DNA of 64,000 bases from Candidatus Latescibacterota bacterium. GTDB lineage: Bacteria; Latescibacterota; UBA2968. The position numbers and the translations under genes were made by a program. This document shows positions 3,526 through 17,238 of this stretch, in pieces. Each line of letters starts with the position of its first letter. Positions within the stretch are counted from its first letter, which is position 1. Under the pieces are notes generated by a model. The model was not told the DNA's origin, ran no database searches, and saw only the letters and a list, made by a program, of their open reading frames with translations. The DNA is taken from the NCBI GenBank assembly GCA_965204375.1, contig OZ241986.1:160001-224000 (forward strand). Reading direction: 5' to 3'.

Positions 3526-6500
3526 TCAGGCTCTTTTTGCCACGGCTACAATCCGCTTTGTATATCCCGACAGGTCGTCCATGAGCGAATATATGGTGGG
3601 CAAGATGACGAGCGTGAGGATGGTAGAGATCGAGAGACCAGAAATAATGACCAGCCCAATTGGTCCCCAACGTCTGGCATTGCCTTCGACATTGCCGTAA
3701 ATCATCGGAATAACCAGCGGCGTAAGCCCCAGGATGGTCGTGGTTGCAGTCATCAATATGGGACGCAGGCGATCTTGTCCGCCGCGCAAGATCGCATCTC
3801 TGCGATATAGCCCCTGTTTGCGATAGCGATTGATGTGGTCGATTAATACAATGCCGTTGTTGACCACAATGCCAAATAAAATGAGCAACCCATAAGTCGC
3901 ATTGCTATCCAGCGCAATACCGAATATGTAAAGTCCCAATGCGACACCTATAAACGCAAAACTGATCGAAAACATGATGGTAAATGGATGGATGTACGAT
4001 TCAAATAGCGATGCCATGATCAGATAAATGAGCAGTGCTGCGAAAATCATAGTGAAATTTGTTTCACCCTCTTCTGAAGCCATATAGCGGAAGCGTCGAT
4101 CCATCTGCCAACTATACCCCTGGGGCAATGGGATGGCATCCATGCGATCGCGCATTTCATAACCGACCGTTTGGACTTCCGATGCTTCCGTATTCGCGAA
4201 CACGGTTACGGTTGACATTCGGTCCTGACGCTCGATGGATCGGGGACCTTTGGTCAATTCAAAATCGGCCAGGCTGGCAAATGAAATCATAGTGCCGCGG
4301 TTGTTTTCAAAGGAGAGGGTCTTGAGTTGATCCAGCGTGGCGCGATCCTCTTCTCGCAATTGTAGCGCGATATCTATTTCTCCATCCGGCGTTTTGAATT
4401 TGCTATTTCCGCGTGCTCCCAATGCCGTGGCAACAGTTGTAGCTATTTGCTGCGGTGACAGGCCGTATTGTTGCGCGCGTTCTCTCCTCACTGAGACCCT
4501 GATTTCTTCTGTTCCACTTTCCAGGCTGGTTTCCACGTCGTGAATGCCCTCAATATCGTCCATTCGCAGTCGAATATCTTCGGCCAGGATCGCCAGAACT
4601 TCGGGATTTCGCCCTTTGACTTCTACCCCGACGCCCGTGCCACTGCTACCACCTCGCCTGAAGCCCGCCTTAAAACGCACGCCCGGGATGTCTTTGGGCA
4701 GCAAAGCACTTACCTTTTTTTTCACATCGTCTGTGCTCAACGGGCTTTCTTCGACGGGTTTTAGGTACAAATAAATCGTATTGCCGCGTCGGGTGCTAAA
4801 TCGCGTTTTTATCGCTTCGATATCCAATTCTTCCTTTTGCGGGAGGAGAATGGCTTCGATTTGTTTGAAAAGCGCGAGTGCGTCGTCGATATCGTAAGTT
4901 CGCGGCATTTCCACCATATAGCCCACCATGCGGTCGGGTTGATAGCGATAGCGCTGTACTTCAATTTTGGTAAAAATGTATATGCCGCCGAATAGGATAA
5001 ATATAGCGACGACAACGGTGGTCCAGCGATAGTGCAGAGTTGTGCTAATTACGCGCGTGTAAACACCTTTGAGACCAAGATGCCGAAAGCGAAAATAGAG
5101 ATAGCCAGTTGTGGTGAGAAATACCCCCAGCGCGATCCACACGGCTATTGGCACGGTTGAAAGCCCGCCCAAAATCCACAGCGTATTATCTTTGAGCCAG
5201 TTGGCCGATTCGACAATGCCCTCTTGGTAAATGAGATACGCCGCGCATGTGGCAAATAAAGTGCCCAATCCAATTTTTAAGAAGAGATCAACGCGAGTAC
5301 CCGCATTTGAAAATGCCCGGGAGCAGGCCAGGGGTATGAGTGTTAAAGCCACGCATAGTGCGGCTACGACTGCAATGCACACGGTGATGGCAAAATCGCG
5401 CATCCACATTGTATTGTACGAGCCAGAAATAAAGATGAGGGGTACAAATACACATATTGTCGTCAGTGCCGCCGCCAGTACGGGTATGCCGATTTCGCGG
5501 CTGCCCTCAATTGCTGCGGTTCGCGTGCCATCGCCTACATCAAAACGCCTGCGGTAAATATTTTCCAGAGCCACGACCGCTGGATCGACCAGCATCCCAA
5601 TGGCGACCATCAGCCCCATCATCGAGATCATGTTCAGCGTGATAGTCGATCCAAACACTTGCCGCATCAGATACATGATCATAAAAACGCACAATACCGA
5701 AATGGGAATGGCGGACCCCACAATGAGCGTGCTGCGGAAGTTTCGCAAAAACACAAAAATGATGCCAATAGCCAGCATACCTCCCAACATGGCGGATTGC
5801 CCCAGACTGGCGATGCCCCTCACCACTGCTTCTGATTGGTCTCGGCGCAAGTGCAATCGCAATTTGTCGCGCCCAATTTCATCTTGAAGAGCGTCTAACT
5901 CTGCCCGGACCAGTCGGCAGGTTTCTACCAGATTGGCTGTCGAGGTCTTGCGAATTTCCATAGAGACCACATCGCGCCCGTCCATGCGTTCAAAATATCG
6001 CTTTTCCGGATAGTCGTAACTCACCTGCGCCACATCTTCCATATTCAGACCATTGGGAAGTGTGAGGTCGCGAATTTGATCTACATTTTCAAATTCGCCC
6101 ACTGCCCGAACCGCGAGGCGTTTGTCGCCTTCTGTGACATAACCGCCAGAAATATTGATGTTGTTGGAGCGTATCGTTCTGTTGAGGGTGCGAATGTCCA
6201 GGCCATAGGCATGCATGCGATTTTTATCGACATCGACTCTGAGTATTCTTTCGTCGGCACCTTCCATTTCGACATTGCCCACCCCGGGGATGCGTTGCAA
6301 GCGCGGCAAAATCGTGTTTTTATATACTGTGACGAGTTCAGATTGATTATCGCCCAGCCAGATCATATTGTAGTCCAGAATTTCCCAATCCGACGAGTCC
6401 CATCTGCGCATCTCAATGCGTTCGAGGTCTTCGGGAAGCCTGCCGCGAACTTGATCTATGCGATCTCGTACCTGAATAGATTTGAGATCCATATCGGTAC

Positions 6501-6792
6501 CGTAGTCAAATTCCATGAACACATAACCCCGACTGTCATAGGATCGCGCGCGGAGTGATTCAACGCCGGGAATCGTGCCCAGCATCTCTTCGATTGGTTT
6601 GGTAATTTCCTTTTGGATCTCTTCGGGCGATGACGAGGGATATGTATAGCTCACATACATTCTGGGATACTGCAAGTCGGGCGCGTATTCGAGCGGCAAT
6701 CTGAATAGGGAAATAAAACCCATGACTATGAGACTGAGCGCTATCATTACAGCAGTAATGGGTTTGTTGATCGCGTATTCCGAGAGTTTCAT
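3526..6792 (-). CDS. RND efflux transporter permease (AcrB/AcrD/AcrF family)
   Basis: 1088 aa; N-terminal TM, GMLVDPAVVALENIYR, GIVVNNGIVLID, RLRPILMTATTTILGLTP. Confidence 0.92.
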   Translation of the reverse strand: MKLSEYAINKPITAVMIALSLIVMGFISLFRLPLEYAPDLQYPRMYVSYTYPSSSPEEIQKEITKPIEEMLGTIPGVESLRARSYDSRGYVFMEFDYGTDMDLKSIQVRDRIDQVRGRLPEDLERIEMRRWDSSDWEILDYNMIWLGDNQSELVTVYKNTILPRLQRIPGVGNVEMEGADERILRVDVDKNRMHAYGLDIRTLNRTIRSNNINISGGYVTEGDKRLAVRAVGEFENVDQIRDLTLPNGLNMEDVAQVSYDYPEKRYFERMDGRDVVSMEIRKTSTANLVETCRLVRAELDALQDEIGRDKLRLHLRRDQSEAVVRGIASLGQSAMLGGMLAIGIIFVFLRNFRSTLIVGSAIPISVLCVFMIMYLMRQVFGSTITLNMISMMGLMVAIGMLVDPAVVALENIYRRRFDVGDGTRTAAIEGSREIGIPVLAAALTTICVFVPLIFISGSYNTMWMRDFAITVCIAVVAALCVALTLIPLACSRAFSNAGTRVDLFLKIGLGTLFATCAAYLIYQEGIVESANWLKDNTLWILGGLSTVPIAVWIALGVFLTTTGYLYFRFRHLGLKGVYTRVISTTLHYRWTTVVVAIFILFGGIYIFTKIEVQRYRYQPDRMVGYMVEMPRTYDIDDALALFKQIEAILLPQKEELDIEAIKTRFSTRRGNTIYLYLKPVEESPLSTDDVKKKVSALLPKDIPGVRFKAGFRRGGSSGTGVGVEVKGRNPEVLAILAEDIRLRMDDIEGIHDVETSLESGTEEIRVSVRRERAQQYGLSPQQIATTVATALGARGNSKFKTPDGEIDIALQLREEDRATLDQLKTLSFENNRGTMISFASLADFELTKGPRSIERQDRMSTVTVFANTEASEVQTVGYEMRDRMDAIPLPQGYSWQMDRRFRYMASEEGETNFTMIFAALLIYLIMASLFESYIHPFTIMFSISFAFIGVALGLYIFGIALDSNATYGLLILFGIVVNNGIVLIDHINRYRKQGLYRRDAILRGGQDRLRPILMTATTTILGLTPLVIPMIYGNVEGNARRWGPIGLVIISGLSISTILTLVILPTIYSLMDDLSGYTKRIVAVAKRA

Positions 6793-8001: not shown

Positions 8002-8475
8002 TTAAAATGGATTGCCCTGGCGGGCCAGCTCAAATTTTCGCCAGCCGACTTGTTTGTCATTTTCGAATACTTTTTGTATGACGTAAAAGGAGGACGGATC
8101 GTATTCTCGCCAGACGCCCGTTTTCTTTCCCTCCAGATATCGGCCTTCTTCTTTTTTTACACCGTTTCTAAAATAAGATATCCAATGCCCGTCTTTTAAA
8201 CCATTTGTCCAGTTGCCTTCTGTTTTTTTCTGTCCATTGCTGTAAAATGTGATTTCAAGCCCGTCTTGCATGACGCCATTTTTGTATGTACCCTGCCCGC
8301 GCACGTTGCCCGCGGCATCGTAATATGTCCAAACTCCAGCGCGGGCACCACTGTCGTATTGCCCTTCTGCCAGTACGCGGCCGTATTGTTTTATTTGTGT
8401 CTGTCCTTCAAATAGCGCGGGCATCTGACACCCGGCTGTGAGGATTCCCACGAGAAGAATTAAAACTCTGATCAT
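8002..8475 (-). CDS. Lipoprotein with MORN-variant repeats (YwqK-like)
   Basis: Lipobox LTAGC; repeated YxxNGxKKxEGxY/WxxGxKxGxW units. Confidence 0.75.
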   Translation of the reverse strand: MIRVLILLVGILTAGCQMPALFEGQTQIKQYGRVLAEGQYDSGARAGVWTYYDAAGNVRGQGTYKNGVMQDGLEITFYSNGQKKTEGNWTNGLKDGHWISYFRNGVKKEEGRYLEGKKTGVWREYDPSSFYVIQKVFENDKQVGWRKFELARQGNPF

Positions 8476-8614
8476 TTATTTTCTCCTGTGTTGTTCTTTG
8501 ATAAATATTTTGCTACAATAGAACTAATATACACAACTGTTTTCATAAGGCAAGATGAAATGATAAATGACTTGTTTAATACGTGCGCGTGCTGACTAAT
8601 ATCATACCAGATCT

Positions 8615-8673
8615 CAACCGCAAAGCGATTGTACTCAACGATCTCTTTATTGTCACAATCTTCTTCTCATTGT
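8615..8673. promoter_or_regulatory. Three tandem palindromic operator-like sites CAAY-N9-ATTG(T)
   Basis: CAACcgcaaagcgATTG 8615-8631, CAACgatctctttATTG 8636-8652, CAATcttcttctcATTG 8656-8672; 21/20-bp period, directly upstream of an XRE regulator. Confidence 0.7.
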
Positions 8674-8700
8674 AATTTTTTATAAAATAAAGAATCCAAT

Positions 8701-9426
8701 ATGTTACTCATCGAACTCGGTCAACGCCTTCGCGCTCAACGGGAACGCCTTGGCCTCAAGCAAAACGATATTGCCAATGCCCTGCAGGTAAGCCCACAGG
8801 CTGTCTCCAAGTGGGAAAGGGGTGAAAACGGTCCCGATATTGCCACTTTGGGACCGCTTGCCAGATTGCTCGGCGTTTCCACGGACTGGCTTTTGGATGC
8901 ACATAGCGAAAATCAAGATGTTTTTGATGCTACTATCTTCACCTCTACAGTTGTCGGTGCATACCAAAAATCATTGCAAATGGAAGCGCGGGAGTTTGCA
9001 GCCTGGGCAAATGGTATTTTGTTTCAACTGACCGAAGCTGTTTTGCGCCACGATGGCGTTCCGCTCAGATATATGGGAGACGCATTTTTGTGTTTTTTTT
9101 CTGGCGTTCACCATCAGCTTCGCGCTGTTCAGGCAGCGGCATTTTCTCAGCGGCTCATCAGTGAGGACCTGGTCATCGGCTTGAGTAGCGGTGAGATTTA
9201 TTTGGGCGCAATGGGGCATCCCGATTACGCCCATCCCGATGTGACAGGCGAAGTGGTCAACATCGCATTTATTGTCCGAGAATGGGCAGAAACAAATGTC
9301 CGCAAAGGAATTGCAGCAACGACATCCGTATTGAACAATCTCGATGAAGTTTTTGATATTTCCCAACCCACAGAAATCAATTTTCGCGGCATCAAAACGC
9401 CCATCTCACTGGTCAGAATCAGATAG
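8701..9426 (+). CDS. XRE-family HTH regulator fused to a degenerate class III adenylate/guanylate cyclase-like domain
   Basis: LRAQRERLGLKQNDIANALQVSPQAVSKWERGENGPD (HTH_3). C-terminal part has RYMGDAFLCFF, IGLSSGEIYLG and GEVVNIA cyclase motifs. Confidence 0.85.
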   Translation: MLLIELGQRLRAQRERLGLKQNDIANALQVSPQAVSKWERGENGPDIATLGPLARLLGVSTDWLLDAHSENQDVFDATIFTSTVVGAYQKSLQMEAREFAAWANGILFQLTEAVLRHDGVPLRYMGDAFLCFFSGVHHQLRAVQAAAFSQRLISEDLVIGLSSGEIYLGAMGHPDYAHPDVTGEVVNIAFIVREWAETNVRKGIAATTSVLNNLDEVFDISQPTEINFRGIKTPISLVRIR

Positions 9427-9469
9427 GGCGTTCCCTGCCGCGTATGCCAACCGAGAGAAAGGATAAAAT

Positions 9470-10921
9470 ATGGCCGATATAGTGTTACCCGATAGCGCGA
9501 CTGATATTCAAATTCCCGATTATTCGCATCTGCCCTATAAAGTCGCCGATATGTCTCAGGCAGATTTTGGACGGAAAGAGATTACAATTGCCGAGCGCGA
9601 AATGCCCGGGTTGATGGCTGTGCGCGAAAAATACGCAGATCAGAAACCTCTGAAAGGTGCCCGCATAATGGGATCTCTGCACATGACGATTCAGACGGCT
9701 GTGTTGATCGAGTCGCTCAAAGTGCTGGGGGCCGATGTGCGCTGGGCGTCGTGTAATATTTTTTCTACGCAGGATCACGCCGCTGCCGCTATTGCGGAAA
9801 CAGGTACGCCGGTTTATGCATGGAAGGGCGAGTCGCTGGAAGAATACTGGGAATGCACTTTGCAGGCACTCAATTTTGTGGAGGGTGGACCGACACTTAT
9901 TGTCGATGATGGAGGGGATGCGACGCTGCTGGTCCATCGGGGGTATCAGGCGGAAGATGACTCCTCGATTCTCGATGAGCCGACTGATAATCGCGAATTG
10001 GAGATTGTCAATGCCGTGCTCAGGCGGCAACTCGAACGCAATCCGCGTTTTTGGCACAATATGGCCGCTGATATTCAAGGAGTTTCAGAGGAGACCACAA
10101 CGGGAGTTCACCGCCTGTATCAGATGCGGGATGAGGGCAAGCTTCTCTTTCCCGCGATCAATGTCAACGATTCGGTGACCAAATCGAAATTCGATAATCT
10201 CTATGGCTGCCGCGAGTCACTCGCCGATGGTATTAAGCGCGCGACAGATGTTATGGTCGCCGGAAAGGTCGTTTGTGTGTGTGGTTATGGCGATGTGGGT
10301 AAGGGGTGTGCCCAATCTATGCGGGGATTTGGTGCGCGCGTGTTGGTGACGGAAATTGATCCGATATGCGCCTTACAAGCGGCAATGGAGGGGTTTGAAG
10401 TGACGACTGTGGAAGATGCTCTTTCCGAAGCCAATATTTTTGTGACGACGACGGGCAATACGGATATTATTCGCATTGAGCACATGGAAAATATGCTCGA
10501 CCAATCCATTGTGTGCAATATCGGGCATTTTGACAATGAAATTCAGGTCGATAAGCTGGGTGATTACCCGGGTATTGTGCACGAAAATATCAAGCCGCAG
10601 GTCGATAAATACACGTTTCCAGATGGGCGTGCGATCTTTTTGCTCGCAGAAGGCCGTCTGGTCAATCTCGGCTGTGCGACCGGGCATCCTTCTTTTGTGA
10701 TGTCCAATTCGTTTACCAATCAGGTGCTGGCGCAGATGGACCTGTGGGTACAGCAGCGCGAAATTGGCGTTTATACCCTGCCCAAACACCTCGATGAGGA
10801 GGTCGCGCGGCTCCACCTCGAAAAACTCGGTGTAAAGTTGACCGAACTCACGCAGAAACAGGCCGATTATATTGGCGTGTCCGTCGAAGGTCCGTATAAA
10901 CCCGATCATTATCGGTATTGA
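9470..10921 (+). CDS. ahcY: S-adenosylhomocysteine hydrolase
   Basis: [69 protein letters not shown]. Confidence 0.97.
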
Positions 10922-10945
10922 TGATAGGGGATTTGCTACTTTTTT

Positions 10946-11824
10946 ATGCGATTTTTAGACTATTTTACCGGCAATCAACCGGTCATTTCCTTTGAGATTT
11001 ATCCGCCGCAGACGCAGGGTGGTATGCGCGCCCTCAAAGCGCGGGTTGTGCCCAATTTGCTCAAGCTGAATCCCAGTTATATGACGGTTACGTATGGCGC
11101 GGGTGGTTCTACCCGCGTCAAAACGCTGGAGATTGCCTCGCTTATCCAGAACGAATTTGGTCTGACTGCAGCGTGTCATCTCACCTGTGTGGGGTCGTCC
11201 CGAACGGATATCGATGATATTCTGAAGGCGATTCGCACAGAGGGTATTCGCAATATTGTCGCGCTTCGCGGCGATCCACCCCGTGGCGAAGATACTTTTG
11301 TGCCAGCGAAGGATGGATTTGCATACGGCAATGAGCTTGTGGCGCATATTCGCAGTACAGAACCGAAAGACGATGGGTTTGGGTTGGCTGTTGCGGGATA
11401 TCCCGAGAAACACCTCGAAGCACCCGATTTTGATACGGATATTGCAAATTTGAAGCGCAAGGTCGAGTCAGGTGGGGATATTGTTATTACGCAGCTTTTT
11501 TATAATAACGATTATTTTTTTCGCTTTGTCGATCGCGTGCGCGCAGCCAATATTACAGCACCTGTTGTTCCGGGTTTGATGCCGATTCTCTCGGCAGGGC
11601 AGATTCAGCGCATCGCGTCTTTGTGCGGGTCTGAGATTCCGGAGGATTTGCAGGATCAACTCAAGGGGGCTGTGGATGATGAAGACAAGGCGATGAAGAT
11701 CGGTATTGATCAGTGCATTGGACAAGCAACCGAATTGCTCGAACAGGGCGTGCCGGGGATTCACTTTTACGTGCTGAATAAATCAACTCACATGCGCCGG
11801 ATTATCAGTGCGCTTCCTCTCTAA
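10946..11824 (+). CDS. metF: 5,10-methylenetetrahydrofolate reductase
   Basis: SFEIYPP, VTYGAGGS, HLTCVG, ALRGDPP, AGYPEKH, ITQLFY, HFYVLN. Confidence 0.95.
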   Translation: MRFLDYFTGNQPVISFEIYPPQTQGGMRALKARVVPNLLKLNPSYMTVTYGAGGSTRVKTLEIASLIQNEFGLTAACHLTCVGSSRTDIDDILKAIRTEGIRNIVALRGDPPRGEDTFVPAKDGFAYGNELVAHIRSTEPKDDGFGLAVAGYPEKHLEAPDFDTDIANLKRKVESGGDIVITQLFYNNDYFFRFVDRVRAANITAPVVPGLMPILSAGQIQRIASLCGSEIPEDLQDQLKGAVDDEDKAMKIGIDQCIGQATELLEQGVPGIHFYVLNKSTHMRRIISALPL

Positions 11825-12422: not shown

Positions 12423-12508
12423 CGAGCTATTGTCCTTTCGTATATACAGTCGTTGTGTAACGCAGATGCACTTTATACACATAAGAACAAAAAAAGTTCT
12501 TTGAAACA

Positions 12509-12537
12509 TTGCATGTGTGATTCTAATCCGTTATGTT
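12509..12537 (+). promoter_or_regulatory. Putative sigma70 promoter of the AAA-ATPase gene
   Basis: TTGCAT-N17-TATGTT; conserved in the duplicate copy at 25438-25466. Confidence 0.5.
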
Positions 12538-12602
12538 GTGAAAGCCCAAGGACGCCATTCGACATTATATCCGGGCACATTGAACCGTTTTTGGAGGTCT
12601 CT

Positions 12603-14351
12603 ATGTCCGTATCTTATCCCCGCATTCCCTACGGTTGGGCCGATTTTAAGGCTATTCGGTTGGAGAACCGCCTCTACGTGGATAAAACCCGGTTTGTCCG
12701 CGAGTTGGAGCAGGAACGCTATGCTTTTCTGATTCGTCCCCGTCGCTTTGGCAAGACGTGCTGGGTGTCTCTGCTGGAGAACTACTACGACCGCAACCGG
12801 GGCGACGCATTTGAAGCTGTTTTTGAAGGCACGGATATTGGTCGGCAACCTACCGAGAACCGCCATCGCTACGTCATCCTGCGCTTTAATTTTTCGATGT
12901 TCGACGATGCGTTAGAAACTTTGCAACAACGCTTTGAAACCTATTGTCATCTCGTACTCAGTCATGCACTGGGTCGGAATCGAGATCTGTTTTCTGAAGA
13001 AGCGACTGAGCGCATCCTTTCACTGCCTTCCATTGATGCCAAGCTCTCTGAATTGTTCCTGTACGCCAGTGACCAGGGCATTCCGCTATACGCGCTTATT
13101 GACGAGTACGACAACTTCGCCAACACGGTGTTGGCGCATCACGGTCAGGTGGCATACCAGTCGTTTACGCATGGCAGCGGGTTCTTTCGCAATTTTTTTG
13201 CCACGCTGAAAGGAGGAACAGAACAGAGCGACGGAGGATTGGAGCGGCTGTTCATTACGGGCGTGTCGCCGATTACGATGGACGACGTGACCAGTGGGTT
13301 CAACATTGGCAAGAATATCAGCCTGGATCCAGCGTTCAATGAGATGCTCGGCTTTACCGAGGAAGAGGTGCGAAGTCTGCTGGTGATGTACCGGGATTGC
13401 GGCGTGTTAGATCGGGATGTAGATACCGTGCTGGGCACTATGCGGGAATGGTACAACGGCTATCGGTTCGCAGAGGCGGCAACCGTCGATATGCACAATA
13501 CCGACATGGTGCTCTATTACCTGGATCACGCCATTCCGAACCGCTCTGGACCTCGTGATCTGATCGATACCAACGTCCGCATTGACTACGGCAAGTTGCG
13601 CCATCTGCTGGTGACCGGGCGGCGTCTAAACGGAAATTTCGACCTGCTGAGGCATGTCATTGCCAATGGCGAGGTAGATACCCGCATTCAATCCAGCTTT
13701 CCCCTGAAGAATCTGGGTCAGCGCGAGAATTTTCTCTCACTGCTGTATTACTTTGGCCTGTTGAGCATTCGCGATCTATCGGAAGGCCTGCCCTGTCTGG
13801 GGATTCCCAATCAGACGGTGAAGCGGCTGATGTACGGTTACTTGCGCGAGGGCTACGACGACATGGGGGTGTTCTCGGTAGATTTTTACGATTTTGAGCA
13901 GCTAACGCACGAGATGGCCTACCGGGGCGCGTGGCGGCCTGTGGTGGACTATCTGAGCGATGCGGTGGACAGGCAGACGGGGATCAGGGATTACATTGAT
14001 GGAGAGAAGGTGGTGCAGTCTTTTTTTGCGGCGTATTTTGGTCTGACGGATTACTTTGTGCTGCACTCAGAGGTGGAATTGAACAAGGGCTATGCAGATA
14101 TCTACCTGGAGCCGTTTTGGGCACAGCATCCGGGCATGCGTTGTGGCTATGTGATTGAACTGAAGTATCTGAGTCGCAGTGAGCATCTGGACGAGTCCGT
14201 TGTGTCGGCGAAAATACAGGAGGCCGTGCGCCAGTTGCGCGGCTACTTGTCAGACGAAGGCTTGCGTCGTCGTCATCCATCTGTGCGACACATCGGTCTG
14301 GCGATCGTGTTTCACGGCTGGGAAATGGCGGCTTGCGAGGCGGTATGTTGA
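12603..14351 (+). CDS. AAA-ATPase-like protein with C-terminal PD-(D/E)XK nuclease domain
   Basis: IPYGxADF, YVDKT, RPRRFGKT, LIDEYDNF, FITGVSP, SGFNI, WYNGYRF; C-terminal GYADIYL...VIELKY. GGAGG RBS. Confidence 0.88.
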   Translation: MSVSYPRIPYGWADFKAIRLENRLYVDKTRFVRELEQERYAFLIRPRRFGKTCWVSLLENYYDRNRGDAFEAVFEGTDIGRQPTENRHRYVILRFNFSMFDDALETLQQRFETYCHLVLSHALGRNRDLFSEEATERILSLPSIDAKLSELFLYASDQGIPLYALIDEYDNFANTVLAHHGQVAYQSFTHGSGFFRNFFATLKGGTEQSDGGLERLFITGVSPITMDDVTSGFNIGKNISLDPAFNEMLGFTEEEVRSLLVMYRDCGVLDRDVDTVLGTMREWYNGYRFAEAATVDMHNTDMVLYYLDHAIPNRSGPRDLIDTNVRIDYGKLRHLLVTGRRLNGNFDLLRHVIANGEVDTRIQSSFPLKNLGQRENFLSLLYYFGLLSIRDLSEGLPCLGIPNQTVKRLMYGYLREGYDDMGVFSVDFYDFEQLTHEMAYRGAWRPVVDYLSDAVDRQTGIRDYIDGEKVVQSFFAAYFGLTDYFVLHSEVELNKGYADIYLEPFWAQHPGMRCGYVIELKYLSRSEHLDESVVSAKIQEAVRQLRGYLSDEGLRRRHPSVRHIGLAIVFHGWEMAACEAVC

Positions 14352-14398: not shown

Positions 14399-14434
14399 TA
14401 AAAAGCCCGATCTCGGTATAAGGTCGGGCTTTTT
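14399..14434. terminator. Bidirectional terminator between the AAA-ATPase gene and the CRISPR trailer
   Basis: AAAAGCCCGATCT-loop-AGGTCGGGCTTTTT. Confidence 0.8.
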
Positions 14435-14439
14435 AAATT

Positions 14440-17009
14440 GCTTCAATTCCATAGTGGTTCGATTAGAAGGGTTTAAGGTCAACCACGCTCTAATTTCTCA
14501 AGCCTGTTTCAATTCCATAGTGGTTCGATTAGAAGCTTTTGTGTGACGTTGCGGGAAAAGTCCCTCAACTCAGTTTCAATTCTATAGTGGTTCGATTAGA
14601 AGTTGTCTGTTTTTGTTCCCGTCCTCTGTCCTGCTTGTGTTTCAATTCCATAGTGGTTCGATTAGAAGGTGGCGTAGGCATATTGGTGGGGTCTATCGGT
14701 GCGCCGTTTCAATTCCATAGTGGTTCGATTAGAAGATTGCCTGAAGCATATCAAAGCAGACCTTGATACAAGTTTCAATTCCATAGTGGTTCGATTAGAA
14801 GGCATTCATACCATATCGCTGAAAGAGCGTCATCATCGGTTTCAATTCCATAGTGGTTCGATTAGAAGAATGCGATACCTATTCGCACCTTGTCGGGAAA
14901 GACGAGTTTCAATTCCATAGTGGTTCGATTAGAAGCTTATTTCGGGGTATTTTTCATCGCTGAAGTCCACGCGTTTCAATTCCATAGTGGTTCGATTAGA
15001 AGCCAACGCAACAACTGTGACCTTCGACGTTGCAACCGTGTTTCAATTCCATAGTGGTTCGATTAGAAGCATCAGACCTCGAGTTCAACTTTAGGCTCTC
15101 GGAATTGTTTCAATTCCATAGTGGTTCGATTAGAAGTGCGATCAGGGAGCAGACGAATGCGTTTCTCGCGCAAGTTTCAATTCCATAGTGGTTCGATTAG
15201 AAGAACTGAAGATGCACTTGCCAATATCGAAAAGGAATTGTTTCAATTCCATAGTGGTTCGATTAGAAGCTGCGCTTGCGCTCTCGGTTGATAACGCGCG
15301 AAAGACAGGTTTCAATTCCATAGTGGTTCGATTAGAAGAAAATGGGGGGGTGCGGGCGCCGCCGCAGCATCTCCGTTTCAATTCCATAGTGGTTCGATTA
15401 GAAGTAAAAGACAGTGAGCCGCTCGTTGTGATGCGCGGTGGTTTCAATTCCATAGTGGTTCGATTAGAAGCCTTGTCGCCAGCTTCTGCACGCACCACCA
15501 AATCTGCGTTTCAATTCCATAGTGGTTCGATTAGAAGTAACTCTCGTCTTTGTTAAACCGCCATCCGGGAGACTTGTTTCAATTCCATAGTGGTTCGATT
15601 AGAAGAAACAGCCCACGCGCCCAAATCCGTGATCGTATAGGTTTCAATTCCATAGTGGTTCGATTAGAAGTCCAGCGCGTGACCATTCTCAGCGCGTCTG
15701 TCATTGTTTCAATTCCATAGTGGTTCGATTAGAAGTCAAAAAGAAAAAGTCGCTGGCGAGACGCGGATTCCAGGTTTCAATTCCATAGTGGTTCGATTAG
15801 AAGTGCCAGCGGCAAGGCAGTGACTGCGACTGCGAACAATGTTTCAATTCCATAGTGGTTCGATTAGAAGCAAATCGGGAGTTGCCGATGTGACGAGATT
15901 AATCGGTTTCAATTCCATAGTGGTTCGATTAGAAGGGTCTCCGTGTACTCCCCAAGGGGATTCGGTAACGGGGTTTCAATTCCATAGTGGTTCGATTAGA
16001 AGATTGTACATCATCTGCGCCATCACTTCATACTCCGCCGTTTCAATTCCATAGTGGTTCGATTAGAAGCTCGAATATCCAGAATGGGGTACAGAGAATC
16101 AAGCATGTTTCAATTCCATAGTGGTTCGATTAGAAGGCGTTTTAAGAACGGCGTGCAAAACCGGGTCTGCACATGTTTCAATTCCATAGTGGTTCGATTA
16201 GAAGTTGCATCTGTTGCTCGTGATTCAGTGTGCGCGTAAACGTTTCAATTCCATAGTGGTTCGATTAGAAGTTTGCCGTCGTCACCAACGGTAACTTTTC
16301 CAAAATATGTTTCAATTCCATAGTGGTTCGATTAGAAGTGCCGCAATGGGACAACTGTTTCGAGATCGGAAGCCATGTTTCAATTCCATAGTGGTTCGAT
16401 TAGAAGTTTCCTTCTCCGGCTGGAGGACTATTTCCATATCGTCGTTTCAATTCCATAGTGGTTCGATTAGAAGACCATATTCTGATGAACCAAAAGCGGC
16501 TTATTCCAAGTTTCAATTCCATAGTGGTTCGATTAGAAGAAAACGGTTTGCTCGAATGCCTGTTCTGTGAATGCAAGTTTCAATTCCATAGTGGTTCGAT
16601 TAGAAGGGCGACCCTGCCGATCTGTTAGTGCAGTCGCCAACCAGGTTTCAATTCCATAGTGGTTCGATTAGAAGTCAGACGTTTTTCGACTTCTCCCGGT
16701 CGGTATCACATGTTTCAATTCCATAGTGGTTCGATTAGAAGCGGCTCGGTGCGGGGAAGAACCTGACTGCAAAACAAAGTTTCAATTCCATAGTGGTTCG
16801 ATTAGAAGGCTACAAGGGGCTACAAGGGGCTATACGGGCTACGTAGGTTTCAATTCCATAGTGGTTCGATTAGAAGGCTCCGCCCGACCCCGCCGTTGTC
16901 GGGTTTTTCGTATGTTTCAATTCCATAGTGGTTCGATTAGAAGAGCTATTTGTAGCCCCTTTGGGCCGCCTTATTCGCTGTTTCAATTCCATAGTGGTTC
17001 GATTAGAAG
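14440..17009 (-). CRISPR. CRISPR array, 39 repeats / 38 spacers (35-39 bp)
   Basis: 30-bp repeat GTTTCAATTCCATAGTGGTTCGATTAGAAG, i.e. CTTCTAATCGAACCACTATGGAATTGAAAC on the minus strand with the typical I-B ATTGAAAC end. Variant repeats at 14440 and 14573 mark the trailer; an AT-rich leader lies next to cas2. Confidence 0.98.
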
Positions 17010-17238
17010 ACCGGAAAATCAGCACTAAAATTTATATATATCTGGGAAGAATACAATCTCAAGAAGCGACATCGTTTTTATTTAAAATGACTATATTTCA
17101 AAAGGTTATAACCCCAAAATTATTATCTGAAGACGTTATCGGAAATCCGCATAAATTCAGTAAGGAAAAATGAAATTGTCGTCAACCTCCAGTTGTGTAA
17201 AATCCCCGGGATATCGACGACAAATTTAGCACTTCCCA
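17010..17238 (-). promoter_or_regulatory. CRISPR leader
   Basis: AT-rich non-coding stretch between cas2 and the first repeat; inverted repeat TTGTCGTC (17176-17183)...GACGACAA (17216-17223). Confidence 0.8.

Follow-up and report, generated by a model that had tools for sequence, protein, structure and literature searches.

The 64,000-nucleotide (nt) stretch analysed here, called the window below, comes from the genome of a Candidatus Latescibacterota bacterium (contig OZ241986.1, positions 160,001 to 224,000 of the forward strand), and all positions are counted from its first letter unless stated otherwise. It carries a gene for a small helix-turn-helix (HTH) protein, a candidate regulator of the S-adenosylmethionine (SAM) cycle, directly ahead of ahcY and metF. 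The three genes are as follows.

8701..9426, plus strand: regulator gene, 241 amino acids (aa); XRE-type HTH and degenerate class III cyclase-homology domain; single copy in the source genome
9470..10921, plus strand: ahcY, S-adenosylhomocysteine (SAH) hydrolase, 483 aa; Pfam AdoHcyase, E 1.1e-150; NCBIfam TIGR00936, 628.8 bits (cut-off 497.6)
10946..11824, plus strand: metF, methylenetetrahydrofolate reductase, 292 aa; Pfam MTHFR, E 8.4e-89; NCBIfam TIGR00676, 316.4 bits (cut-off 293.7)

The three open reading frames (ORFs) are co-directional and are separated by spacers of 43 nt (regulator to ahcY) and 24 nt (ahcY to metF), and their coordinates agree with the gene order described in a first-pass annotation that had been made from the letters of the window. 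In the regulator, residues 10-64 (nt 8728-8892) matched HTH_3 (PF01381) with an E value of 7.2e-16 and 58.4 bits against a Pfam cut-off of 23, and the corresponding region of an AlphaFold model consists of five helices. The rest of the protein, searched as a single sequence, matched Guanylate_cyc (PF00211) below threshold (residues 78-232, nt 8932-9396; E 0.0044, 17.1 bits, cut-off 21.9). A profile of 17 C-domains of the family (alignment A2) matched 65 PDB sequences at E <= 1, including 2w01_A (Cya2; E 2.3e-15) and 3r5g_A (CyaB; E 9.4e-14). The AlphaFold model, built from a 26-row alignment, had a mean pLDDT of 83.3 and a pTM of 0.67 and was unsure only in the linker 68-72 and the loop 169-181; a Foldseek search with it matched cyclase catalytic domains, the best being 2w01_C (E 9.9e-11, prob 1.00, TMt 0.72). 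By homology and predicted fold, the C-terminal half of the regulator is a class III cyclase domain.

The first-pass annotation had claimed that the first metal-binding Asp and the transition-state Arg of this domain are replaced while GD and N remain, and the HMMER alignment with solved cyclases agrees on each count. Thr83, inside IFTSTVVG (residues 79-86), stands where the aligned solved cyclases have Asp, and Ile191, inside VNIAFI (residues 186-191), stands where they have Arg after the conserved Asn. Preserved are G126-D127, the latter being the second metal Asp (Asp2), the purine-specifying pair formed by R123 (Lys in most relatives) and D180, and the ribose Asn N187. The metal, transition-state, purine-specifying and ribose functions are those that the cyclase literature assigns to the corresponding positions of active cyclases. 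Across 148 family sequences, the same positions were occupied as follows.

Position 83, first metal Asp (Asp1): S 73, T 39, G 16, D 11, A 8, E 1
Position 191, transition-state Arg: L 124, R 13, I 4, others 7
Position 123, purine Lys: K 135, R 4
Position 127, metal Asp2: D 143
Position 180, purine Asp: D 147
Position 187, ribose Asn: N 141
Gamma-phosphate Lys position: K 77, R 22

Besides these, W102, N104, T111, H138, R141, H173, and Y176 are almost invariant and specific to the family, and the mean column identity of 67% across phylum labels suggests a strong constraint on the whole domain. A word-indexed protein search yielded 874 proteins at E <= 0.001 among 1596 candidates, and the best 120 of the 874 were 55-95% identical to the regulator and 240-316 aa long, with a query coverage of at least 92%. 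An exhaustive profile search of 1.84 billion cluster representatives returned 52 members at E <= 1e-30, nearly all of them about 240-250 aa or fragments, with the domain at about 70-240; below them came ordinary long cyclases. These lengths and search results therefore describe a compact family with a single architecture. Its members appear in the source databases as 'class 3 adenylate cyclase' (many, from JGI), 'transcriptional regulator with XRE-family HTH domain', or 'helix-turn-helix domain-containing protein', and none of these databases holds a functional name for the family.

The genes beside the homologues were surveyed in two scans of one-genome-per-species contigs, which gave 102 loci with a cyclase domain (L001-L022 and L081-L160, the latter being the best 80 of 130 relatives). 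All counts exclude the loci L023-L080, 58 in number, which matched only the HTH, and after five repeat contigs (L092, L102, L115, L119, and L136) were dropped, 97 distinct loci remained, in every one of which the HTH is fused to a cyclase-type domain. The adjacent gene on the same strand was ahcY in 51 of the 97 (gap 27-713 nt, median 120), metE in nine (in one of them ahead of the regulator), a gene for MetH or a homocysteine S-methyltransferase (HMT) in two, and metF alone in one; threonine synthase (thrC; TIGR00260, 217 bits) followed in five and adenosine deaminase in one. The first-pass annotation had proposed to look for conserved linkage of the homologues to methionine-cycle genes, and such linkage was found at 63 of the 97 loci, with six more beside thrC or adenosine deaminase. 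The ahcY-linked loci bear about ten labels, namely Latescibacterota, Hydrogenedentota, Sumerlaeota, Nitrospinota, Nitrospirota, Planctomycetota, Armatimonadota, Gemmatimonadota, Tectimicrobiota (Entotheonella), and, in a single case, Bathyarchaeota, probably through a binning error. The loci L001, L002, and L022, with proteins 96-98% identical, agree with a Latescibacterota source for the window. Even where protein identity has fallen to 40-60%, linkage to the one pathway is maintained. When the ahcY label was mapped on a quick maximum-likelihood tree of 90 proteins, it required nine changes, whereas shuffled labels required 29.9 on average; one clade, of 49 rows (support 96), held 41 ahcY-linked and all five thrC-linked members, another of 18 rows (support 99) held all eight metE-linked rows, and a separate Pirellulales group of five rows was ahcY-linked. 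Because kin share labels, these tree figures describe clustering and not independent events.

Two of these groups have features of their own. The thrC-linked subclade (L016, L122, L124, L125, and L126) is tight (support 100) and has near-identical members labelled Latescibacterota and Gemmatimonadota, which suggests mislabelled bins or recent transfer. The metE-linked clade (Syntrophorhabdus, delta-proteobacterial) carries, directly after the regulator, a conserved protein of 122-135 aa with 70-84% identity between loci, a hydrophobic N-terminal half, and a CxxC...CxxC pattern; it found no match in Pfam or NCBIfam, and a QueF-like gene follows it in two loci. Its coordinates are L134:6529-6897, L140:6494-6895, L157:6497-6901, L149:6532-6897, and L132:6568-6936.

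Upstream of the regulator gene, the window holds a tandem operator-like element that the first-pass annotation had not seen, together with a putative promoter.

8615..8631, plus strand: distal operator-like site A, CAACCGCAAAGCGATTG (CAAC-N9-RTTG); starts 21 nt before the start of site B
8636..8652, plus strand: proximal operator-like site B, CAACGATCTCTTTATTG; overlaps the putative -35, which opens with the final three bases of the site
8650..8678, plus strand: putative promoter, TTGTCA (8650-8655), 17 nt, TAATTT (8673-8678)

The element, an imperfect 17-bp palindrome (CAAy / rTTG), recurs across the family. In the 300 nt upstream of the regulator gene, CAAC-N9-RTTG was present at 56 of 95 loci, against a mean of 0.61 and a maximum of four in 200 mononucleotide shuffles, and on the opposite strand at five of 95; the sites lie 45-108 nt ahead of the start codon of the regulator. 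Fifty sites with enough flank to be aligned were all different in sequence, commonly had a second CAAC 21 nt upstream, preferred C or G after CAAC and CGTC or CGTT ahead of ATTG, and showed a T-A...T (TAnnnT-like) pattern 17 nt after the hexamer that opens with the TTG of the site. It is from this recurring pattern that the promoter of the window was deduced. In the metE-linked clade, the motif is a perfect CAAC-N9-GTTG, with TCAACC-N3-GGTTGA just upstream. The motif tracks the regulator and not the target, as it is present at loci where the regulator precedes ahcY, metH (L014), metF (L141), HMT (L143), or thrC (L016 and kin). Because it lies upstream of the regulator and in none of the 51 regulator-ahcY spacers, the simplest reading is one autoregulated operon. 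Relative to the putative promoter, the proximal site would lie at about -49 to -33 (some 41 bp before the start) and the distal site would be centred near -62, a placement that fits a repressor blocking the -35 and equally a class-II-type or lambda-cI-like activator. We regard this operator, to which the protein presumably binds, as the strongest new evidence that the regulator controls the operon.

Relatives without the regulator provide natural controls. The family proper (E <= 1e-50, short frames) occurred in 21 of 121 genomes of the phylum searched, the source genome included, and in 13 of 19 other genomes of the same genus. Five complete genomes of that genus lack it (L162-L166; G041, G028, G052, G007, and G018), and all five retain ahcY-metF and the MORN-repeat gene that, in the window, lies divergently upstream of the regulator. 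In front of ahcY, they have another promoter-like stretch (TTGACG, 17 nt, TAACTT), which is conserved among the five; these leaders gave no Rfam match at E <= 0.1, and the motif was found in none of the five intergenic regions; its sole match within 1.5 kb upstream, at -1295 in L166, lies inside another gene. In the closest of these genomes, the AhcY of which is 97% identical, the last ~40 nt before ahcY are identical to the window. Regulator and operator therefore behave as one cassette, which a genome either carries or has replaced.

In the 6.34-Mb source genome, a weight-matrix scan gave 261 hits of at least 12 bits, the first of which was the operon's own site, itself used in training. Of the 32 best hits, nearly all fell inside long ORFs, no other intergenic tandem site was among them, and the motif was not found at metK of this genome. 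Judged from the distribution of sites, the regulon is small and local, comprising ahcY and metF, at times joined by a methionine synthase, but not metK. As to other modes of control, Rfam at gathering score gave nothing in the whole window except one tRNA, and at E <= 10 nothing relevant in 8300-9600; neither a SAM-I riboswitch nor MetJ was found in the source genome. No SAH riboswitch (RF01057) was found in the source genome either, which is a weak negative because the same search had no match in any of its 14 control genomes.

The cyclase-homology domain is predicted to pair. In a model of two C-domain copies that also contained two unscored SAH molecules, the dimer reached an interface score (ipSAE) of 0.78 (runs 0.78, 0.90, and 0.75), compared with 0.00 for the best of three controls; the pLDDT of the partner was at least 89, and contacts agreed between runs by at least 80%. 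Among proteins of solved structure, 20 of 30 pairs of the same chain and one of 23 single chains reached the mark applied to ipSAE, counts that hold only roughly here. The predicted interface comprises residues 86-112, 121-126, and 165-187 (full-length numbering) and covers the purine Lys position, W102/N104, T111/E112, the GHPDY loop (G172-H173-P-D-Y176), D180, and N187. The invariant residues of the family would therefore be located where cyclases build their shared active site.

Taken together, the linkage conserved at 63 of 97 loci, the operator that travels with its regulator at 56 of 95, and its absence from all five regulator-less relatives support the first-pass annotation in its view of the protein as a SAM-cycle regulator. 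We think it rather probable that it is an autoregulated local one-component regulator of the activated-methyl cycle, in which an adenine nucleoside, most likely SAH, is sensed by a dimer of the dead cyclase domain. The protein would form a head-to-tail homodimer through its cyclase-homology domain, and its two XRE-type HTH heads would bind the palindrome CAAC-N9-RTTG, present twice at 8615-8652 with a spacing of 21 bp. Since the promoter-proximal copy would overlap the -35 of the promoter driving regulator-ahcY-metF, the operon would be autoregulated. With one metal Asp and the transition-state Arg lost, the cyclase domain would have ceased to make cyclic AMP (cAMP), and the retained adenine- and ribose-contacting residues at the dimer interface would serve as the sensor of an adenine nucleoside, so that a rise in SAH would lead to more transcription of the genes that remove it. 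That an adenosyl ligand may be sensed, as the first-pass annotation had suggested, is strengthened by the conservation of K/R123 (139/148), D180 (147/148), and the ribose Asn (141/148). With the adenine and ribose contacts kept, the metal and phosphate contacts largely lost, and targets that dispose of SAH and its products, SAH would be the best candidate ligand and adenosine the second. We infer that the regulator binds the motif and a ligand, and likewise which ligand this is and in what sense it acts; by analogy with SahR, we slightly favour repression relieved by SAH over activation.

Several observations weigh against this proposal. At the level of the family, no pathway gene was adjacent at 23 of the 97 loci, while five more had too little DNA for the neighbour to be judged, and the strict motif was absent from 39 of the 95 upstream regions, several of which carry variants such as TCAACC-N3-GGTTGA. 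Evidence for a wider regulon was thin. The metH gene of the source genome has CAAC-N9-ATTG at -87, the TTG of which opens a TTGGTC-17-TATCTT pair, but this site scored only 13.5 bits and ranked 146th of the 261 hits. In five other carrier genomes, the motif was found at only two of 15 loci with a homocysteine-methyltransferase domain (a clear tandem site before a metH-like gene in L175 and a single doubtful site before an HMT gene in L174), at none of six metF-type loci, and, as a weak match, at one of five metK loci. At the operon itself, a consensus promoter scan did not list the plus-strand promoter, the putative -10 of which is weak with only three of six matches; listed instead was a minus-strand promoter-like site from 8656 to 8628 that faces the divergent MORN-repeat gene, and as it occupies the same DNA, divergent control is possible. 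A hint of co-transcription, which speaks for the proposal, comes from RNA-library assemblies of coral and sponge metagenomes that include this stretch or close relatives, with contigs that bridge the regulator/ahcY junction in all four runs compared and the ahcY/metF junction in three of four; this is only consistent with an operon, as these are assembled contigs that may come from DNA and cannot prove a single transcript. Three of the runs (X2-X4) lack cover over 8566-8681 and one X2 contig begins at 8701, although, these being assembled contigs, nothing firm follows for the start of transcription. With respect to the protein, the pass of the dimer model probably reflects its likeness to the many solved cyclase dimers and is not proof of pairing, and the retention of Asp2 (143/148) and of Lys or Arg at the gamma-phosphate position (99/148) means that a nucleotide such as ATP may be the ligand. 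Finally, the full catalytic set is kept in two of the 148 sequences (P0133 and P0141) and at the metagenome locus L183/L184 (L183:3-605 and L184:4001-4498). These full-set relatives have the same XRE HTH and GHPDY loop as the rest of the family and may be DNA-binding active cyclases. The earlier description of the domain as probably inactive thus stands for the clade of the window, with T83 and I191 in the regulator and only 11 of 148 sequences having D at position 83 and 13 having R at position 191, but it does not extend to the family as a whole.

Among the alternatives, the one that survives best, which we nevertheless consider unlikely, keeps the same regulator and operator and replaces SAH by another adenine compound, namely adenosine (the other AhcY product), SAM acting as a co-repressor, or ATP. 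The retained residues contact adenine and ribose, which all of these ligands share; an adenosine deaminase gene follows the regulator in L006, and a nucleoside transporter gene follows ahcY in L009. The conserved Asp2 and gamma-phosphate position, in turn, would suit a nucleotide, whereas the loss of Arg in 135 and of Asp1 in 137 of the 148 sequences would remove phosphate and metal contacts. A SAM sensor would be expected to hold metK, and a metK site was absent from the source genome and present as one weak match of five elsewhere. Moreover, the targets (ahcY 51, metE nine, metH/HMT two, and metF one of 97) are steps of SAH removal and homocysteine remethylation, and regulons of this kind are described for the SAH-responsive SahR and the SAH riboswitch by Leyn et al. 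(2014; PMC4239095).

It is less likely still that the cyclase-like domain is a ligand-free dimerization scaffold of a constitutive or otherwise controlled autoregulator. Such a scaffold would account for the dimer model, and the monomer model is of low confidence in the loop 169-181; however, a pure scaffold would be unlikely to keep the purine and ribose positions (147, 141, and 139 of 148) while losing the catalytic ones, and neither the invariant GHPDY...D motif at the interface nor the mean column identity would be expected of it. We give very little credence to the idea that the regulator has retained adenylate or guanylate cyclase activity alongside DNA binding, with cAMP and not ahcY transcription as its output. 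The name that JGI gives to many members and the full-set sequences speak for it, but the window protein has Thr and Ile where aligned solved cyclases have Asp and Arg. A search with P0141 led to four metagenome loci, L183/L184 among them, and no locus of P0133 was found among the genome and metagenome contigs searched. Within about 4 kb on each side of L183/L184, there was no methyl-cycle neighbour, and the 200 nt upstream lacked the motif; this is one example, and it fits a functional split between full-set and degenerate members. Equally improbable is that the linkage reflects inherited synteny or chance and the protein is an ordinary XRE repressor or an antitoxin-like protein of a mobile element with other targets: its best NCBIfam HTH matches, all sub-threshold, are phage or antitoxin repressors and the gene comes and goes within one genus, but the linkage holds at low identity, under many phylum labels, and in separate clades (nine label changes against 29.9), the neighbour that replaces ahcY is often another gene of the same pathway, and no phage or toxin genes lie beside the regulator in the window.

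If the methyl-cycle regulator that we favour is real, a further step can be imagined, which we put forward tentatively and with rather more doubt than conviction. The family could be a new class of SAH receptor that uses a rebuilt dimer-interface site, in which Lys, Asp, and Asn would hold the adenosine part of the ligand and, more speculatively, D127 and the old gamma-phosphate Lys/Arg would bind the homocysteine part by its amino and carboxylate ends. It would derive from active HTH-linked cyclases, of which the rare full-set relatives (P0133, P0141, and L183) would be remnants, and would govern SAH clearance under about ten phylum labels, mostly of uncultured groups. With the full-set relatives available, the transition from enzyme to sensor could be traced, and a 241-aa protein with a defined 17-bp operator could serve as a biosensor for SAH or adenosine. 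Good maps of methyl-cycle control exist only for Proteobacteria, Firmicutes, and Actinobacteria (MetJ, MetR, SahR/SamR, McbR, and the SAM and SAH riboswitches), and we know of nothing on it in Latescibacterota, Hydrogenedentota, Planctomycetota, Sumerlaeota, Nitrospinota, and their kin. If correct, our proposal would fill this gap with a testable regulator, operator, and regulon, and would be the first case known to us of a nucleotidyl-cyclase fold reused as the small-molecule sensor of a transcription factor.

Some further features of the window lie around the operon. At the 3' end of metF, a convergent chorismate-lyase-like gene (PF01947; 11805-12509, minus strand) overlaps the last 20 nt of metF. 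A gene for a 632-aa protein with AAA-ATPase_like and PDDEXK_9 domains (12453-14351) lies just upstream of a clustered regularly interspaced short palindromic repeat (CRISPR) array at 14434-17100 with about 40 copies of a 30-nt repeat and a period of about 67 nt. On the other side of the locus, upstream, lies an ORF of 1088 aa (3526-6792, minus strand). In all four RNA-library runs, an extra G follows 9425, in the stop codon of the regulator; the stop is preserved, and this looks like a strain difference.

The proposed system can be compared with several known ones. The sensor domain of SahR is methyltransferase-like. According to Leyn et al. (2014; PMC4239095), SahR is an SAH-responsive ArsR-family regulator of SAM-cycle genes with an ArsR-type DNA-binding domain, and its core regulon includes metK; the SAH riboswitch has an ahcY-metF core, joined by metH in some taxa, and does not control metK. 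The same paper lists MetR (LysR family, homocysteine), MetJ (SAM), and McbR (TetR family, SAH) as further methionine regulators, and contains neither 'XRE' nor 'cyclase'. SahR resembles the regulator of the window in being local, autoregulated (as we propose here), and encoded beside its targets, with a palindromic operator and a core of ahcY, metF, and metH, at times with metE. It differs in having metK in its core, whereas no convincing metK site was found here, and in its occurrence in Proteobacteria, as opposed to Latescibacterota, Hydrogenedentota, Planctomycetota, and others. Pfam and NCBIfam gave only an XRE-type HTH and a cyclase domain in the regulator, unlike the ArsR-type SahR, so that the two would work in a similar way without belonging to one family. 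The SAH riboswitch, as described in the same paper, shares the logic and content of the regulon but is a leader RNA, whereas a protein is proposed here; RF01057 had no match in the window or in the source genome, the latter being the weak control noted above. MetR, MetJ, and McbR likewise exert metabolite-sensing control over methionine or methyl-cycle genes, with unrelated folds and different regulon cores.

A search of the full-text literature found no paper on an XRE-cyclase regulator or on a protein regulator of ahcY outside the known set, and, to our knowledge, no HTH regulator with a class III cyclase domain as its sensor has been described. With the class III cyclases Cya2 (2w01), CyaB (3r5g), and CyaC (1wc0), the regulator shares the fold, the predicted head-to-tail dimer, Asp2, the purine pair, and the ribose Asn; unlike them, it has Asp1 and Arg replaced, an N-terminal XRE HTH fusion, a length of only 241 aa, and the family-specific invariant GHPDY...D loop. 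Degenerate GGDEF receptors are enzyme-derived sensor domains of one-component regulators in which catalysis has been lost and the nucleotide pocket is reused, and the regulator described here would resemble them as a catalytically dead domain whose nucleotide pocket has become a receptor.

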